Source: an uncultured archaeon | Lineage (GTDB): Archaea; Iainarchaeota; Iainarchaeia; Iainarchaeales; CSSED10-239 | Direction: 5' to 3' | Assembly (NCBI GenBank): GCA_964591795.1 | Contig: CAZQEL010000021.1 | Coordinates: 1-14,978, forward strand | Length of the DNA: 14,978 bases | Shown: positions 3,220 to 14,212 of the stretch, one piece after another | Layout of the letters: every line of letters starts with the position of its first letter | Position numbering within the stretch: the first letter of the stretch is position 1 | The notes under the pieces: model-generated | The model's database searches: none | Seen by the model: the letters and a program-made list of their open reading frames with translations, nothing else | What the model was told of the DNA's origin: nothing | Program-made: the position numbers and the translations under genes

Positions 3220-4996
3220 TTATTCAACAGTTACTGATTTTGCAAGGTTTCTTGGTTTATCAATATTACATCCTTTTAGATCTGAAATATAATATGCTAA
3301 AAGTTGCATAATTATAACGTTTATAAAAGGAGTAAAATCATTATCTATGTCTTTAACATAAATCACATAATCAGATATATTTTTTATATATTCATCATTT
3401 TTAGTTGCAATTGAAATAATTACTCCACCTCTTGCTTTTACTTCATTAATATTTGAAATAACTTTTTCATAGTTATTATTTTTATTCACAATAAAAACAG
3501 AAGGCATATTTTTATCAATTAAAGCAATTGGACCATGTTTCATTTCAGCTGCTGGATATCCTTCAGCATGAATATAAGATATTTCTTTTAATTTTAAAGC
3601 ACCTTTTAGAGCTATAGGATAATTAATACCACGGCCTAGATATAAAAAGTTTTTAGAATCTTTAAAATTAATTGCTATTTTTTGAATATCATTAACAGAC
3701 TCATTAATTGTTTCAACAATTATTGTAGATAAATTTAATAAATTATTAATTATTTTATTAATATCTGTAGGTGAAATTAAATTATTTTTTTGTCCAATAA
3801 ATAATGTTAACATCCACATGGATACTAATTGATTAGTAAAAGCTTTGGTTGAAGCAACTCCAATTTCAGGCCCTGCTCTTGTATATATTCCAGCTTTTGA
3901 TTCTCTAGCTATGGTTGAACCTACTACATTAACAATACCAATTATTTTTCCTTCTTTTTGCTTTGCTTCTCTTAAAGCTGCAAGAGTATCTACAGTTTCT
4001 CCTGATTGAGAAATAACAATTACAAGGGTATTTTCTGAAATTATTGGATCTCTATATCTAAATTCTGAAGCATAGTCAACCTCTGTAGGAATTTTTAGAT
4101 ATTTTTCAAAAATAAACTTTGAAACAAGAGCACAATGCCAAGAGGTTCCACAGGCAACAATAACAATTCGATTTAATTTAGCTAGATATTCTTTAGTTAA
4201 AAAATTAAGTCCACCAAGGACTTTTTTTTTTTATAGATCTATTCTTCCAGCTAATGCATTTTTAACAGAATCTCCTTGCTCATAAATTTCTTTTAACATG
4301 AAATGTTTAAAACCTTGTTTTTCAATTTGTTCTAAAGAAATTGATAATTCTTTAATTTTTTTATCAATTATTTCATTATTAAAGTTTGTAATTGAATAAC
4401 CTTTGTCAGTAACAGTGATTATTTCATCATCTTCAATATAAACAACATTTTTTCCAACACCCAAAACAACTGGAGAACCTTTTCTTGCTACAATAATTTC
4501 TCTTTTATCTTTTGCCATAACTAAAAGTCCAAAGGAACCAACAACTTGACTAATTGCTTTTAAGGTTGCTTGTTTAAGATCATTAGTATAAAATTTAGAA
4601 ATTAATGCTACAAATACTTCTGAATCTGTTTGAGATTTAAACGAATATCCTTCTTTAATTAAATATTTTTTTTAAGATTCATAATTTTCAATAATACCAT
4701 TATGAACAATTGTAATTTTGTTAAAAGAATCAGTATGTGGATGTGAATTAACATCTGATGGTTCTCCGTGTGTAGTCCATCTAGTATGTGCAATTCCAAT
4801 TATTGAGTTAATTGAAAAGTCTAATTTTTTTTTTAAGATTAAGAACCTTTCCTTTGGTTTTAATGGTTAAAATTTTATTATTATATAAAATTGAAACACC
4901 GCAGGAATCATAATCTCTATATTCTAATCTAATGAGTCCATTAATTAAAATTGGTAATACTTTTTGTTGTCCTATATATCTTATAATTCCACACAT
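3220..4996 (-). pseudogene. glmS: glutamine--fructose-6-phosphate aminotransferase (GlmS), disrupted by 1 frameshift and 2 in-frame TAA
   Basis: N-terminus MCGII.YIG...RLEYR.YDS. Middle [21 protein letters not shown]...VHNGIIENY...SQTDSEV. SIS domains VACGTSWH...SQSGETVDT...GVASTKAF...GRG..YPIALKGALKLKEISYIHAEGYPAAEMKHGP. Canonical C-terminus KPRNLAKSVTVE*. Track ORFs 4808..4996, 4231..4518 and 3220..3819 are pieces of this one gene. Lesions: extra A in the A10 run (plus 4825-4834), TAA at 4672-4674, TAA at 4231-4233. Positions 4230..3220 form one uninterrupted 337-codon frame. Confidence 0.9.
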
Positions 4997-6975: not shown

Positions 6976-9369
6976 TTATAAACTTTTTCTAACTTTTGAC
7001 ATAGAAAAACCACAATCTAAAAGTTCTGATTCAGAATAACCAGCAAGTTTAAGTTCCTCTAAATTATAACCAACAGATCTAAGTTCTTTTGCAGAAAAGT
7101 TTAAATTTTTAAGTTCTTTTGCACTAAAGTGTATTACTTTCATAAGTCTTATACCAATTCCAAGATCAAAAACTTCTTTTGCAGAATAACCAGCATAATG
7201 AAGTTGTCTTGCACTATATCCTACATCATAAAGATCTTTTGCTGAAAAATTACCATCTCTCATAAATGATGCATCAAACCCAGCAATCTTTAATTGTCTT
7301 GCAGAATAGAATGTATGTAAGTCTTTTGGAACATATCCAGCTTGAGCCATTTCTTTTGCAGTGTATCCTGCATTATAGAATTCAGATATGGGTACCTCTA
7401 ATTTATTAAGTTCTTTTGCTTTATAACCTGCAAATCTAATGCTTGAAACATCAAATCCAGCATCATAAAGTTCTTTAGCTGTATATCCAACCACATGGTA
7501 TTGTTTAGCAGTATATCCTATGCTTAAAAGTTCTCTTGCACTAAATCCACCTTTTCTTAAATCAATTAAAGAGAATCCTTCTAAATGAAGTTCAAGAGAA
7601 GTAAAACCAGCAAGTCTTAAATCAACTAAAGAATATCCATTTGCTAAAAAGTCTTTTATAGTACAACCAAGCATATGAACTTCTCTTAAAGAATAACCAC
7701 CAACAAGTAAATCATTACAAGTAACTCCTGCGTTTTTAAGTTGAATTGCTTCATAACCAGCTTCTTTTAAATCTTTAATTGAGTATCCTAAATTTATTAG
7801 TTCAGGAATTGTATATTTAAGATATTTAAGTTCATCTAAATTAAGTTTATCTTTTGAAACTTTAACTTCTTCAACTGGTGATAGGTGAATAAGATCTGAT
7901 AAATCATAACCTGCTTTTTTTAAATCTTCAATAGAAACTCCACTTTCAGCTAACCATTTAGCAGGAATTTCTTCTTTTTTAAATTTAGTTAAAGAAATTT
8001 CTTTTATAAGTTCTTTTAATGAAAAACCAACATCTAAAAGTTCTTTTATGGTAAATCCTTCTTTTAAAATTTCATTTAATGTATAAACCGATCTTACTTC
8101 TTCTAAAGTATAACCTTTTTTTATAAGTTCTTTTAATGTAAATATTTTAACAAGATCTTTAATTGAAAAACCACAATCTAAAATTTCTTTAAGTTTATAA
8201 TTAGCTGATATTAAATCTTGTAAAGAATAACCTGCATGTTTTAAATTCTTAGCAGAGTATGCGTATTCTTTTAATTTTTTTGCAGTAAATTTAGCATTTT
8301 TTAAATCTTTAGCATCAAATTCAGCAAACAATATTGTATGTTGATCAAATCTAACTTTTTTAAGATCTATTGGTTTGTAACCTATGTTTTTAAGTTCTTT
8401 TGTACTTACACCTGCAAGTTTTAGTTCCTTTAAAGAAAAACCAGTATTCTTTAAATCTTTTGCAGAAAAATGAAGATAATAAAGATCTTTAGCTGAAAAA
8501 TTAAGTTCTTTTAAAATTTTAATTGAGAATTTATTTTGTTTTAAAACAACAGCATCAACACCATATGAAAAAAGGTCTTTTGCAGTCATAGTTTTTAAAG
8601 TTTTTTTATTAATAATTATTTTTTTAACTTTTTCTTTTTTAGGAGTTTTTACTTTTTTAATAGTTTTTGTTTTAGCTACTTTTACTTTTTTAACAGCTTT
8701 TGTTTTAGTTACTTTTACTTTTTTAATTTTAATTCCAATTTCTAAATCAGTAAAACCAGCTTTTCTAAGATCATTAATACTAAATTTAGCTTTTTTAAGT
8801 TCTTGTATTGTATATGTTCCTTGATAAAGTTCTTTTGCTGATAAATTAATTGTTTTAAGTTGAGTTGCTGTAAATTTAGCTCTTTTTAAATCCTTAATAA
8901 CAAATCCAACTTCTAAGAGTTGTCTTGCACTAAATTTTGATTTTTTAAGTTCTCTTGTAGTATAACCAACTGCTTTTAAATCTTTTAAATTAATACCAAT
9001 TTCTTTTAATTCTTTTATAGAATAACCAGATACTTGTAAATCTTTTACAGAATAACCCACAGAATATAACTCTTTAGCAGTAAAATCTAAATTTTTAAGA
9101 TTAACTCCACTAAATCCTACTTCTTTAAGTTTCTTTACTGTAAACCCTGCTTTGTTTAATGTTTTTGCTTTAAAGCCAAGTCCTTTTAAAACTGTATAAT
9201 TTGCTTTTATTTCTTTTAATTTTTTTGCAAAATCAATTCTATTAATATTAAATTTTGAGAAAATAGTAACATCTACAGGAGATATAATATATCTTGAAGG
9301 AGAGTTAATTTGTTTTAATAATAAAGAATCTAGTTCTTTTTTAGTTAATTTTTTAATATTTATTGTCAT
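6976..9369 (-). CDS. 797-aa decapeptide tandem-repeat protein (x-G-[FY]-[ST]-x-x-[ED]-L-[KR]-x) with a Lys-rich central linker; function unknown
   Basis: One uninterrupted 797-codon ORF. AGGTGGTGCTTATAT-ATG Shine-Dalgarno. Residues ~62-212 form 15 consecutive 10-aa units with no indels (LKGLGFKAKT LNKAGFTVKK LKEVGFSGVN LKNLDFTAKE ...). The same unit continues through residues ~255-797 with a few 9-aa units. No N-terminal signal peptide or TM helix is evident. Confidence 0.85.
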   Translation of the reverse strand: MTINIKKLTKKELDSLLLKQINSPSRYIISPVDVTIFSKFNINRIDFAKKLKEIKANYTVLKGLGFKAKTLNKAGFTVKKLKEVGFSGVNLKNLDFTAKELYSVGYSVKDLQVSGYSIKELKEIGINLKDLKAVGYTTRELKKSKFSARQLLEVGFVIKDLKRAKFTATQLKTINLSAKELYQGTYTIQELKKAKFSINDLRKAGFTDLEIGIKIKKVKVTKTKAVKKVKVAKTKTIKKVKTPKKEKVKKIIINKKTLKTMTAKDLFSYGVDAVVLKQNKFSIKILKELNFSAKDLYYLHFSAKDLKNTGFSLKELKLAGVSTKELKNIGYKPIDLKKVRFDQHTILFAEFDAKDLKNAKFTAKKLKEYAYSAKNLKHAGYSLQDLISANYKLKEILDCGFSIKDLVKIFTLKELIKKGYTLEEVRSVYTLNEILKEGFTIKELLDVGFSLKELIKEISLTKFKKEEIPAKWLAESGVSIEDLKKAGYDLSDLIHLSPVEEVKVSKDKLNLDELKYLKYTIPELINLGYSIKDLKEAGYEAIQLKNAGVTCNDLLVGGYSLREVHMLGCTIKDFLANGYSLVDLRLAGFTSLELHLEGFSLIDLRKGGFSARELLSIGYTAKQYHVVGYTAKELYDAGFDVSSIRFAGYKAKELNKLEVPISEFYNAGYTAKEMAQAGYVPKDLHTFYSARQLKIAGFDASFMRDGNFSAKDLYDVGYSARQLHYAGYSAKEVFDLGIGIRLMKVIHFSAKELKNLNFSAKELRSVGYNLEELKLAGYSESELLDCGFSMSKVRKSL
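8646..8730 (-). repeat. ~33-nt (11-codon) tandem repeat, about 2.5 copies, encoding KKVKV[TA]KTK[AT][VI] inside the repeat protein
   Basis: Plus strand: tttttacttttttaatagtttttgttttagctac / ttttacttttttaacagcttttgttttagttac / ttttacttttttaatttt. Protein: KVKVTKTKAVK KVKVAKTKTIK KVKTPKKEKVKK. Confidence 0.6.
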
Positions 9370-11170: not shown

Positions 11171-11419
11171 ACAAATAGTATATATGTTACATTTAAATAT
11201 ATTACTTATAAATTAAATTAAAAAAAAAACAAAAACAAATATTAATTCATAAAAATAATAAAATTTCTGCTAATTTGGTTACTTCATTCCTTTCATAAAT
11301 ATGTTCTTTTTCACCTAAATTTATTAATTACTTCTTTTATTAAATTTTTAATAATTGTTTTTTTTATCTTTTTTTTAATTTTAAGATATTTAATAATATA
11401 AAAATGTTTAAATTTATTT

Positions 11420-11434
11420 AAAAAAAGAAAAATA
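11420..11434 (-). terminator. oligo-U tract directly after the tRNA 3' end
   Basis: The minus strand reads UAUUUUUCUUUUUUU immediately after the discriminator base. This is an archaeal-style oligo-T terminator. Confidence 0.35.
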
Positions 11435-11552
11435 TCCCCCCTCCCAGATTTGAACTGGGGATCTTCCGGTTACCGCCATTAAAATAAATTTAACTTTGGT
11501 ATTACCCAAAATGTCTACAGCCAGACGCACTAGACCACTATGCTAAGGGGGG
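11435..11552 (-). tRNA. tRNA-Tyr (anticodon GUA), archaeal type, intron-containing, no encoded CCA
   Basis: Folded by hand: acceptor CCCCCCU/AGGGGGG; D arm GCA-UAGUGGUCUAG-UGC; anticodon stem UCUGG/CCGGA; loop C-U-G-U-A-G-[intron]-A; variable AGAUC; T arm CCCAG-UUCAAAU-CUGGG; discriminator A. C1-G72 and the short variable loop are the archaeal/eukaryal tRNA-Tyr type. Confidence 0.9.
11471..11514 (-). other. 44-nt tRNA intron at the canonical 37/38 position
   Basis: 118 nt of gene minus a 74-nt mature cloverleaf. The inserted ACAUUUUGGGUAAUACCAAAGUUAAAUUUAUUUUAAUGGCGGUA sits between G37 and A38. Exact bulge-helix-bulge boundaries were not verified. Confidence 0.7.
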
Positions 11553-11597
11553 TGTTTATAACTATATAATATATTAGCAAAACATATTTAAATAAAA

Positions 11598-12038
11598 CTA
11601 TTTTAGAATAATTTTTTTTAATTGTTTCTTTCTTGTTGGAAATAAGATTTTATAATAACCAACCGCATTTTCTGCCATAATATTATTTTCTAACATATAT
11701 TTATTGAACGTATATGATTTTAAAGAATCTAAAACTTCTTTTAAATTGCCTTTATATTCTACATTTAAACTTTTTTCAACAATTTTTGAAAAATTAGATA
11801 AATTAATTTCTTTTATAAAAAATGATGGATCTTTTGAAAATAATTTAGAAATTTCAAGATTAAATGATGTTAAATTAATTATTTTCCCTAAGTATTTATT
11901 TATTTGAAAGTTACTTGTAACTTCAATTGAAATTAAAAACTCTAAAATATCTAAATCTTTAACACCGGGAATTATTTTCATTTTTTTAACAGATTTAAAA
12001 TCGTTTGTATTAGCAATAAAATTAATTGTTTGATTCAT
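11598..12038 (-). CDS. hypothetical protein, paralogue B of a tandem pair
   Basis: 146-codon ORF. TGTGATTAATT-ATG Shine-Dalgarno overlapping the upstream TGA stop. Shares INFI..NDFK..KK...DLDI...ISI...INKY.G ... LFS...SF.KE.N.S.F with 12045..12431. Confidence 0.6.
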   Translation of the reverse strand: MNQTINFIANTNDFKSVKKMKIIPGVKDLDILEFLISIEVTSNFQINKYLGKIINLTSFNLEISKLFSKDPSFFIKEINLSNFSKIVEKSLNVEYKGNLKEVLDSLKSYTFNKYMLENNIMAENAVGYYKILFPTRKKQLKKIILK

Positions 12039-12044
12039 AATTAA

Positions 12045-12431
12045 TCACATTTTATGAAAAGATGGAAATGCATTTTTTTTTGAAAAATATTTTTCTAAAA
12101 TATATACTTTACAGGCATGAAATAAAGCTTTTTTCTTAGCTTTTTTATATTCAGTTAAAAGTTCATTTACTTGTCTTTTAAATTTACTGGAATTAAGTTC
12201 CTTTAAAAAAGAAGTTTCATTCATTGAAAATAAAGCTAAGTTTGATTTTTCTAATTTTTTTACATCAAGTATCTTTTCTAAAAGAACGCCTACATATTTA
12301 TTAATTGGAGTTTGAATAGATATGTAATATTTAAAAATATCCAAATCATTTGTTTTTAATTTAAACGGTAATTTTTTATCTTCTTTAAAATCGTTTACAC
12401 TTGAAATAAACTGTATATATTCATCTGCCAT
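12045..12431 (-). CDS. hypothetical protein, paralogue A of a tandem pair
   Basis: 128-codon ORF. TGTGATTTAAT-ATG Shine-Dalgarno. Collinear similarity to 11598..12038 over most of its length. Confidence 0.6.
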   Translation of the reverse strand: MADEYIQFISSVNDFKEDKKLPFKLKTNDLDIFKYYISIQTPINKYVGVLLEKILDVKKLEKSNLALFSMNETSFLKELNSSKFKRQVNELLTEYKKAKKKALFHACKVYILEKYFSKKNAFPSFHKM

Positions 12432-12485: not shown

Positions 12486-13067
12486 CTATTGTTTAAAACA
12501 CTTTGAACATCTTGCTTGGTATTTTTCAGTACCACCTAGAATAACAGTTTCTTTTGAATCTCCAAGTCTATAGGTTCTAGTTGCAGTTTCACCACAATTA
12601 TTACAAACTGCATCAAGATGTATTACAAAATCTGAAAGAGCCATTAAAGTTCCAATATGATCCTTTTTGTCCTTAAAAGGAAAAGGTTTACCTTGAAAAG
12701 TTTGATTTAACCCGCAAGAGAAAACATTAACCCTAAAAGTTGTAATTTCTCTAATAATATTTAATATTTTAGAATCAAAAAATTGTACTTCATCAATAAA
12801 AACATTAACTAAAGGTACCTCTTTTTGGTTACTTGAAGCTATGTATTCTTTAACTTTTAATAAAATTAGTTCTGAATTACTACAAGGGATTGCATCTTCT
12901 TTAATACCATTATGATTTAATATTGATTTGTTTGAATATCTGTTATCCATTTCAGGTTTAAATATTAATGAATATCTTTTAGCTATTTCTTCTCTTGATT
13001 TAAGTCTTAAAAGCTCTGTTGTTTTTCCAGAAAACATAGGTCCTGTAATTGTTGTTATTTTTCCCAT
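12486..13067 (-). CDS. tdk: thymidine kinase (TK1 type)
   Basis: P-loop ITGPMFSGKTTELL; VFIDEVQFF; C-terminal zinc site CNNCGE ... ARCSKC. Length 193 aa. GAGTGATAAAA-ATG Shine-Dalgarno. Confidence 0.9.
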   Translation of the reverse strand: MGKITTITGPMFSGKTTELLRLKSREEIAKRYSLIFKPEMDNRYSNKSILNHNGIKEDAIPCSNSELILLKVKEYIASSNQKEVPLVNVFIDEVQFFDSKILNIIREITTFRVNVFSCGLNQTFQGKPFPFKDKKDHIGTLMALSDFVIHLDAVCNNCGETATRTYRLGDSKETVILGGTEKYQARCSKCFKQ

Positions 13068-13092: not shown

Positions 13093-13906
13093 CTAATACA
13101 TATGACTTCTTGTGCTAATTAATAAATCTGTAAAATAAACATCAATCTTACCATCTACTCTTTTAACAAAAATATTTGAAAGTTTTTCAAAATCTCCAAT
13201 ACCTCTTTTGTTACCTACAGAAACTGGTAAGAAGTTAAGTTCTGTTAATTTATGAATTTTATTCTGAATTGATTTAAGTTCTTTTGTTGTTATTTTTTTA
13301 TCTAAATAAGCTTCACCCATTGTTTTTAATCCTGTAAAGTCATAAGCAATAATACTTTTCCTACTTAAGTTATCAGTAAACGCTAAATGAGGCTTTATTG
13401 TATTAATTCCATATTTTTGAAAAGCTTGATTTGCAATAAATTCATTATTTGCTAAAAAACTACTCATTGGAGCTTCAACCATTTTTAAAAAATAATCTTT
13501 AGATATATTTTCTTTTTTTAAAAATAAATTCATTTTCAGTAAATATTTATTATTATAACTACTTTTCTTAAAATGAGATAAATTTAAATCAAGTTTATCT
13601 GTACTTAAAGAATACTTTTTAATATTATTACTATTAATATTAAATACGTTTTTAGAAATAAAATCTATAACTTCAGGATATTGTTTAAATATATTTTTTC
13701 CAATTAAGCTTAGATGTAAAGTTTTAGATTTTTTAGAACCTAAATCAATTGAGTAATATAAAGTTTTGCCATTTAATTTTGTAACTTTAAATTGATTCTT
13801 ATTTTTTATAAGTCTTTTTCTTTTTAAAGTAATATTAGAATCTATTTTTCCTAAATTAACATCTAATTTAGGTTTTTTTAATTTTTTTAAAATTTAAACA
13901 AATCAT
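13093..13906 (-). CDS. hypothetical protein, ~270 aa if one A is removed from an A7 run; as written, the start is frameshifted from the body
   Basis: The track ORF (13093..13533) has no SD at its ATG, and its frame stays open 120 more codons to 13893 without any ATG/GTG/TTG. AGGTG-TAA-ATG lies at 13914-13904 in the frame offset by 1 (MICLNFKKIKKT*). The two frames overlap only across two A7 runs (plus T-runs 13873-13879 and 13882-13888). Confidence 0.55.
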
Positions 13907-13927
13907 TTACACCTGATTAATTATAAA

Positions 13928-14212
13928 TATAGTGGTTTACTATAAGCCGCTTTATGTAGTTAATAGCAATCAGTCTTAGCGGAGATTAAAATTCTCCTTG
14001 CACCAAATGTATTCCTGCATGATTTCAGCCTTTCTCTTTTCCCTTCAGTTCTACACATCACAAGTTTAAAATAGAAAAGAGCCGTCTTGTTTCTGTTCAG
14101 GAATAAAGCCCCATTAAGAACTTTTATTTTTTTAATTAAATTATTGGTGAGCGGACTTTCCTCATCTTTTTAGAATCACTCTAAAAAAATGTGCTAAACA
14201 TAAACCACTATA
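13928..14212 (-). ncRNA. rnpB: RNase P RNA
   Basis: ORF-free G+C-richer island. The minus strand contains, in the correct order: GAGGAAAGUCCGC (CR-I / P4 5' strand, plus 14151-14163), AACAGAAAC, AAGGGAAAAGAGAAAGG, AGACUGAUUG, and ACAUAAAGCGGCUUAUAG (CR-V / P4 3' strand, plus 13940-13957). AAG-U-CCGC pairs with GCGGCUU, leaving the conserved bulged U. The termini form a perfect 12-bp P1 (UAUAGUGGUUUA / UAAACCACUAUA). Confidence 0.85.

Follow-up and report, generated by a model that had tools for sequence, protein, structure and literature searches.

A conserved protein-coding gene located between the RNase P RNA gene and the thymidine kinase gene is, in the archaeal DNA studied here, split from its start signals by a frameshift of one base. 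We call this DNA, the whole stretch of 14,978 nucleotides, the window. The gene is specific to a lineage of Forterrea/Iainarchaeum-type DPANN archaea, and its product is about 265 amino acid residues long. It is quite probable that the gene in this clade starts at a TTG codon, that one base was lost at codon 4, and that the lesion is really present in the genome; we infer the exact base that was lost. On balance, the event was probably a recent inactivating frameshift in a decaying, reduced, AT-rich genome, and the function would thereby have been lost. The initial annotation, which was made from the sequence alone, had regarded the 266-codon frame as a real gene, and the continuous orthologues bear this out.

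In AT-rich reduced genomes, frameshifts in poly(A) or poly(T) runs have been interpreted as young pseudogenes or as genes rescued by slippage (PMC3017870; PMC5574713). The same alternatives, a first step of erosion versus rescue by polymerase slippage, have been reviewed, as have the archaeal cases of programmed frameshifting (PMC5009743). The present case, in which two genes are hit among about 17 in 15 kb, is one further, modest example of how genes erode at A/T runs in ultra-small archaeal genomes, and shows the value of comparative alignment for the repair of reading frames.

Methods

The start region of the window was compared with that in three other assemblies, IMG 3300039186 (JGI), ENA ERZ27316756 (with k141 contig names), and Logan SRR8862237. 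The contigs were found by look-ups of the window's thymidine kinase and of the annotated 146-residue product. The sequence features, the continuity of the orthologues, the reproducibility in other assemblies, and the spacing of the Shine-Dalgarno (SD) motifs are direct observations.

Results

Reading frames at the locus

The minus-strand sequence around the start is ...CACTATATTTATAATTAATCAGGTGTAAATGATTTGTTTAAATTTTAAAAAAATTAAAAAAACCTAAATTAGATGTTAATTTAGGA..., and the locus contains the following elements.

13914-13910, minus strand: AGGTG, SD-like motif, seen in the sequence
13909-13907, minus strand: TAA between AGGTG and ATG
13906-13904, minus strand: ATG, the start proposed in the initial annotation
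13906-13868, minus strand: out-of-frame mini-ORF of the ATG frame, MICLNFKKIKKT-stop (stop TAA at 13870-13868)
13901-13899, minus strand: TTG in the third frame, putative ancestral initiation codon, aligned with the relatives' starts
13892-13889, minus strand: T4 run, putative site of the one-base loss in codon 4, with the stop of the TTG frame (TAA) at 13889-13887
13888-13882 and 13879-13873, minus strand: two A7 runs, encoding KK motifs
13893-13093, minus strand: long open frame of 266 codons plus stop, from ATT 13893 to the stop at 13095-13093
13533-13531, minus strand: ATG that opens the annotated 146-residue product, the first canonical start in the long frame
12486-13067, minus strand: thymidine kinase gene with its own SD, a conserved neighbour 25 nt downstream of the frameshifted gene

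The AGGTG-TAA-ATG, the 266-codon frame, the 23-nt overlap, and the two A7 runs had all been located correctly in the initial annotation. The ATG frame and the long frame are both open over 13893-13871 (23 nt), and both A7 runs lie inside this overlap. As had been proposed, one A fewer in either run gives a continuous ORF, MICLNFKK(L/I)KKPKLDVNLGK. The AGGTG-TAA-ATG had also been taken as the only start signal; here, the TTG at 13901-13899 in the third frame had been overlooked. This TTG opens a four-codon ORF, TTG-TTT-AAA-TTT-TAA (MFKF-stop), which ends at 13889-13887. In the long frame, the first ATG, GTG, or TTG is at 13533, 120 codons in.

These 120 codons had been judged unlikely to be open by chance, and our estimates agree. 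The G+C content of the window is 22.5%, and, with all six frames counted, a fraction of 0.084 of the codons are stops; an open stretch of 119-120 codons has a chance probability of about 3e-5, and when the 360 nt were shuffled 200,000 times, no stop-free sequence arose.

Orthologues and gene neighbourhood

A search with the repaired protein gave eight homologues of 263-309 residues with a coverage of 86-100%. All were unannotated or labelled 'hypothetical protein', and they aligned from the first residues to the last. The reading frame is continuous in all eight homologues and in four syntenic loci, and is disrupted in the window copy. Whether orthologues would be continuous had been suggested as a check, and they all are, with conservation at the protein level across the upstream 120 codons. 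The closest relative, found in three samples (L001, L018, and L019), has a 77% identical protein and 81% identical DNA. The matches in genomes were to Candidatus Forterrea multitransposorum and to a Candidatus Iainarchaeum MAG. A profile search of 1.8 billion cluster representatives yielded 72 members at E < 1e-3, mostly of 230-290 residues, one of which was the window's own truncated 146-residue call. A second homologue search with a 40-sequence profile returned no names and no Pfam domains.

The order of a DUF4013-like membrane protein, the RNase P RNA, the frameshifted gene, thymidine kinase, a 128-residue gene, and a 146-residue gene is conserved in L002/L003, L011, L014, and L015. The identity of the thymidine kinase is given by PF00265 on the orthologues and by its synteny in L002, L011, L014, and L015. 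As the orthologues are continuous and occupy the same neighbourhood, the annotated product is a truncation.

The two genes at the end of this order are tandem paralogues of 128 and 146 residues (11598-12431, minus strand), which share about 33% identity and have been kept in every relative. In an ENA record (L005, 2186-3019), they are called as one protein of 277 residues across the TGA at 12047-12045, probably because the gene caller used a TGA-sense code on DNA of low GC content.

RNase P RNA upstream of the gene

The initial annotation had placed an RNase P RNA just upstream of the start region, and a match to RF00373 confirmed it. Related loci have their own copies, as listed below.

13931-14209, minus strand: archaeal RNase P RNA gene (RF00373), immediately 5' of the frameshifted gene
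L001, 76-321: RNase P RNA of a relative, RF00373 matched end to end
L002, 5687-5972: the same
L011, 1437-1728: the same
L014, 26-312: the same

The match in the window covers the full model and includes the GAGGAAAGUCC motif, with 58.9 bits and an E-value of 6.9e-16, and does not reach the gathering score of 84. The RNA is kept at the syntenic place in the four relatives (L001, L002, L011, and L014), again as full-length matches below the threshold. The RNase P RNAs of this lineage score only 47-74 bits against RF00373, all below 84, and a search of the whole window with Rfam at the gathering score gave no hits. Thus, standard Rfam annotation misses the RNase P RNAs of this lineage.

A TATA-like TTTATAAT is located at 13920-13927 (minus strand), just beyond the 3' end of the RNase P RNA. 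The TTG follows only about 20 nt later, and transcription from this element would give an mRNA without the SD. For the frameshifted gene, co-transcription with the RNase P RNA and leaderless transcription are both conceivable.

Start codon and lesion

The TTG at 13901 aligns with the TTG start of the closest relative (L001, L018, and L019) and with the ATG start of L002 and L014. The start-codon positions compared were as follows.

L001: 351-353
Window: 13901-13899, minus strand
L002: 6001-6003

In L001, where the gene is intact, the string ATGATTTGTTTAAAT is identical to that of the window, and a start is possible only at the homologous TTG. The same ATG is present in L001, where it is out of frame and meets a stop after nine codons. 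In a DNA alignment made with MAFFT, the single gap in the window is at codon 4, where AAATT-TT stands against AAATTATTT, GGATTTTTT, and GGATTATTT in the relatives. One base added at this codon gives MFK(F/L/I)LKKLKKPKLDVNLGK, which has the same length as MFKLFKKIIRPKVEVNLGK of L001 and the same pattern, M-x-x-hydrophobic-hydrophobic-K-K, as all orthologues (the others read MVGLFKKLFS...). The deletion of an A gives MICLNFKK..., which is one residue longer than the protein of L001 and has a non-homologous N-terminus.

The spacing of the SD points to the same codon. Seven other genes in the window have a GGTGAT-type SD with exactly 7 nt from GGTG to the start, and the 16S rRNA of a related Forterrea genome carries the complement of this motif at its 3' end, ...GGATCACCTCCT. 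At the frameshifted gene, the distance is 8 nt for TTG 13901 and only 3 nt for ATG 13906. That the spacing to the ATG is shorter than in the other genes had already been pointed out, and it is indeed 3 nt versus 7 nt. The ATG at 13906 therefore does not stand as the start; in addition to its spacing, the DNA and protein alignments place the ancestral start at TTG 13901. Counting against the TTG, no other gene in the window starts with this codon.

Since the TTG aligns with the relatives' starts and has a suitable SD spacing, the simplest lesion is a one-base deletion in codon 4, within the T run at 13892-13889. The two A7 runs are downstream of the stop of the TTG frame; thus, this frame is not repairable there. 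The initial annotation had placed the lesion in an A7 run with one extra A; the alignments instead give one missing base in codon 4, and the extra A appears, on the sequences compared, to be the less likely lesion. One base loss in codon 4 would alone explain the window, whereas the extra A requires both the gain of an A and a switch to a start codon other than that of the sister lineage. Against the loss, the gain from A6 to A7 is mutationally at least as easy as the loss from T5 to T4. Two one-base repairs each give an ORF, and only the orthologues tell which of them is the historical one.

In Forterrea, L014, and L011, the start codon is ATG; it became TTG in the ancestor that the window and L001 share. 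Thus, initiation may already have been weakened before the frameshift.

Presence of the frameshift in other assemblies

The start region, T4-A7-TT-A7, is identical in the JGI, ENA, and Logan assemblies, which makes an assembly error unlikely, although these assemblies may come from shared samples or a shared study and are then not fully independent, and consensus contigs hide minority variants. Over 4.8-5.1 kb, the window has 100% identity with the ENA and Logan contigs. Eight differences, all outside the frameshifted gene, separate it from the JGI contig.

We regard an assembly or sequencing error at a homopolymer, with an intact gene in the real genome, as quite unlikely. The lesion does lie among runs of T4, A7, and A7, and the window is a metagenome-derived contig; however, different pipelines gave the same bases in three other assemblies, one of them with eight SNPs elsewhere, and the lesions in a second gene, glmS (see below), are likewise reproduced. 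Moreover, a search of 5.8 billion clusters gave no full-length protein of this organism, for which only the 146-residue call is on record (in NCBI, JGI, Logan, and ENA).

The annotated 146-residue product

That this product is a real protein starting at ATG 13533 is hardly credible. Among the ORFs with a canonical start it is the longest, and the best-conserved motifs fall within it, but the 120 codons upstream of 13533 are conserved coding sequence, and no SD or promoter-like motif was found upstream of the ATG. The methionine is not conserved, most orthologues having leucine at this position. In the AF2 model, it is inside a predicted beta strand (residues 117-125), so that the product would begin in the middle of a strand and lose the preceding strands together with the whole N-terminal domain. 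The doubt that had been cast on this start was thus well founded. The call of 146 residues is an artefact of first-ATG calling in a frameshifted gene, and the annotation should read: disrupted copy of a gene of about 265 residues, with a TTG start in this clade.

Slippage, recoding, and switching

The long ORF is in the -1 frame relative to the TTG frame, so that a shift would be needed within AAA-TTT, before the TAA. By inspection of the sequence, no X XXY YYZ heptamer leads from the TTG frame into the ORF. After a -1 slip, tRNA-Lys would pair with UAA or tRNA-Phe with AUU, in each case with a mismatch at the first position. A +1 slip on TTT-T was considered as a rescue and rejected; it enters the ATG frame, which stops again at 13870. 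Reassignment of a stop codon was also rejected: the genes in the window end in TAA, TAG, and TGA, and several different stops surround the start.

The frameshift is absent from the orthologues; L001, L018, L019, L002, L011, and L014 are all in frame. As no relative has the shift, nothing indicates that a recoding site has been maintained. Nor does anything favour a conserved programmed slippage site: the orthologues are free of the shift, and the TTG frame lacks a slippery motif that allows re-pairing. Rescue by slippage is possible and unsupported. It would call for a tract of about 9 nt or more with a common product that restores the frame, and the runs here are of 4 and 7 nt.

If translation started at ATG 13906 with one A too many in an A7 run, MICLNFKK... 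would be made from a fraction of the messages or ribosomes, either because RNA polymerase leaves out an A or because tRNA-Lys slips by +1 on AAA-AAA-A. We consider this unlikely. It has in its favour that the ORF is otherwise intact and becomes continuous once either A7 run loses one A, that a +1 slip on A7, which permits perfect re-pairing, or the deletion of an A in the RNA would join the ATG frame to the ORF, and that poly(A)-tract frameshifts in AT-rich endosymbionts have been reported to be rescued by transcriptional slippage (PMC3017870). However, that literature discusses tracts of 9 nt or longer, the length at or above which the tracts of Blochmannia were considered rescuable (PMC3017870). 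In Buchnera, transcription insertions dominate at A/T runs and deletions there are less frequent, error rates climb exponentially with run length, and restoration of the frame was not observed (PMC5574713). At the present locus, an added A in an A7 run gives an immediate stop; only the deletion of an A helps, and from the ATG alone. The 3-nt spacing, the out-of-frame ATG of L001, the longer and non-homologous N-terminus, and the lack of the shift in any orthologue, all described above, count against this start as well.

A real frameshift with a full-length or nearly full-length protein still made from the TTG/SD context by a non-canonical route is unlikely too, and slightly more so. The candidates are a -1 slip at AAA-TTT, re-initiation after the four-codon ORF, and initiation at ATT 13893. 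The ORF is intact, and the first ten or so residues are of low confidence in the model and variable in the family, so that slight shortening at the N-terminus should do little harm. Slippage in the P site is known to be stimulated when a stop codon occupies the A site, which also counts for such a route. Against it, the -1 re-pairing has the first-position mismatch and lacks an X XXY YYZ motif, ATT 13893 is 16 nt from GGTG, and none of the candidate routes is conserved in the relatives.

We think it very unlikely that the gene is a phase-variable (contingency) gene switched by slipped-strand mispairing in the 5' T and A tracts. Homopolymer tracts are present within the first 10 codons, where the tracts of contingency switches in bacteria are typically found. 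However, all recovered contigs show the same off state, with T4-A7-TT-A7 throughout at the consensus level, the tracts are short (4 and 7 nt), and the related organisms are all in frame.

It is unlikely that the T4/A7/A7 stretch at codons 4-10 is a 'saviour' site for recoding or switching in a DPANN archaeon. If it were, a minority of transcripts, ribosomes, or cells (the last through a change of tract length) would restore the frame, and a kinase-like protein would be made at a low, tunable level and would not be lost.

A probable young pseudogene and the erosion of glmS

We return to the reading that we prefer, a recent inactivating frameshift. The ancestral start in the clade would be TTG 13901-13899, served by the AGGTG SD 8 nt upstream. 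The loss of one base in a TTN-TTN stretch, now the T4 run at 13892-13889, would have turned the TTG frame into MFKF-stop and left the remaining 266 codons in the -1 frame, without ATG, GTG, or TTG before codon 121. The ATG at 13906 would be an out-of-frame bystander, as it is in the intact relative. The likely outcome would be little or no full-length protein, and the gene is probably a pseudogene of very recent origin, in a genome that is small and AT-rich and sheds genes through indels and TAA mutations at A/T runs.

The frame is disrupted relative to intact orthologues, and the lesion is reproduced in the JGI, ENA, and Logan assemblies. No further disabling mutations or relaxed selection were found in the gene, the other 266 codons being open. 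As these codons have stayed otherwise intact at a GC content of 22.5%, a pseudogene would have to be of very recent origin; the alternative is that the lesion is tolerated thanks to some product that is still made. The dN/dS values against L001, which mostly reflect the history before the shift, are below 1 in both parts of the gene (0.41 over the 117 N-terminal codons, 0.16 over the 146 C-terminal ones). As a test of relaxed selection, a comparison of the two parts does not decide the matter, since in the family as a whole the N-terminal half is the less conserved one.

A second gene in the window is broken three times.

3220-4996, minus strand: glmS (glutamine-fructose-6-phosphate aminotransferase)
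4825-4834: frameshift in an A10 run (A run on the coding strand)
4674-4672: in-frame TAA that heads an A8 run
4233-4231: in-frame TAA that heads an A11 run

The same lesions are found in the ENA assembly (L016), and a look-up of the 199-residue glmS fragment found it not on record. The gene looks like an older pseudogene.

Predicted fold of the protein

The AF2 model of the repaired protein, made with 40 family members in the alignment, has a pLDDT of 92.2 and a pTM of 0.89; an earlier model from nine sequences (pLDDT 80) gave the same weak kinase matches. Four beta strands followed by two helices are predicted for residues about 10-90. In the model, residues about 94-260 begin with a beta-rich lobe, which is followed by one helix, two strands, two further helices, and a beta hairpin region at the C-terminus. 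In the alignment of 40 sequences, K137 (YFLK) is invariant, and E151, D234, N240, and D256 (FTD) are conserved in at least 90%. By the predicted secondary structure, these residues can be assigned as the beta3 Lys, the alphaC Glu, the catalytic-loop D..N, and the DFG-type Asp of kinases. The canonical spacing from D to N in kinases is +5. It is +6 in the branch of the window and +5 in distant family members, in agreement with the earlier remark that the spacing is off by one.

In a search of the PDB with Foldseek, nothing matched at E <= 0.001, and the best E-value was 0.01. The list was made up mostly of protein kinases (Wee1, CDK8, DAPK1, PKA, WNK, MEK, and the PAN3 pseudokinase), with probabilities up to 0.98, TM-scores of 0.31-0.39, about 160-200 aligned columns, and E-values of at least 0.01; the N-terminal part gave faint matches to PUR repeats. 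Profile searches of Pfam, NCBIfam, and PDB sequences with the repaired protein and the 40 members yielded nothing beyond noise (DUF7884 at E 0.005, Kdo at E 0.099 in two of the 40 members, and designed helical proteins). An alignment of the family profile with the PKA sequence by hhalign gave one chance match of 15 columns. The earlier hint at a kinase-like fold thus holds in part: the Foldseek probability of 0.98 and the conserved residues weakly favour it, but no match reaches E <= 0.001 and the sequence methods are empty. Judging from the predicted structure, the family is an uncharacterised one and probably minimal kinase-like, with an extra N-terminal domain.

Other features of the window

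A protein of 797 residues is encoded at 6976-9369 (minus strand) and consists almost entirely of short degenerate repeats (...G[YF]S.K[ED]LK.[AV]...); its precomputed Pfam field is empty. The stretch of 428 nt at 11171-11597 has no ORF of at least 40 residues. At the equivalent position, 4824-4952, L011 has an Rfam match to a tRNA of 129 nt, which presumably contains an intron. A scan of the whole window for tRNAs with ARAGORN and Rfam found none.

Discussion

What this gene encodes is a well-predicted, uncharacterised family with kinase-like catalytic residues and a fixed place between the RNase P RNA and thymidine kinase. Its intact members could merit a biochemical test. Like Bud32, RIO, and Kdo/WaaP kinases, the protein is small and has a Lys in a beta strand, a Glu in the next helix, D-x(4-5)-N, and a later Asp, and its Foldseek matches are almost all protein kinases. 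Unlike them, the family has no sequence match in Pfam, NCBIfam, or the PDB, and its Foldseek matches have E-values of at least 0.01 and TM-scores of about 0.3-0.39. The protein also ends about 10 residues after the DFG-like Asp and carries an extra N-terminal beta4-alpha domain of about 90 residues.

In bacterial prfB, a +1 frameshift takes place at CUU-UGA. The present locus resembles such programmed frameshifting in having a short zero-frame ORF that ends at a stop, the main ORF in another frame, and an SD upstream. It differs in that the shift site is not conserved in orthologues, that no codon is competent for re-pairing in the required -1 shift, and that a +1 shift on TTT-T leads into the wrong frame.

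The frameshifted genes of Buchnera and Blochmannia also lend themselves to comparison. In these endosymbionts, as in the window, a single indel has occurred in a homopolymer-rich and otherwise intact conserved gene of a very AT-rich small genome, and here a nearby gene, glmS, is also eroded at A runs. Unlike the endosymbiont genes, the present gene belongs to an archaeon and not to an inhabitant of insects, its lesion is at codon 4, next to the start, and the shift is not shared with relatives. The tracts are short (T4 and A7) compared with 9 nt or more, and the common product of slippage, one additional A, would leave the lesion as it is.
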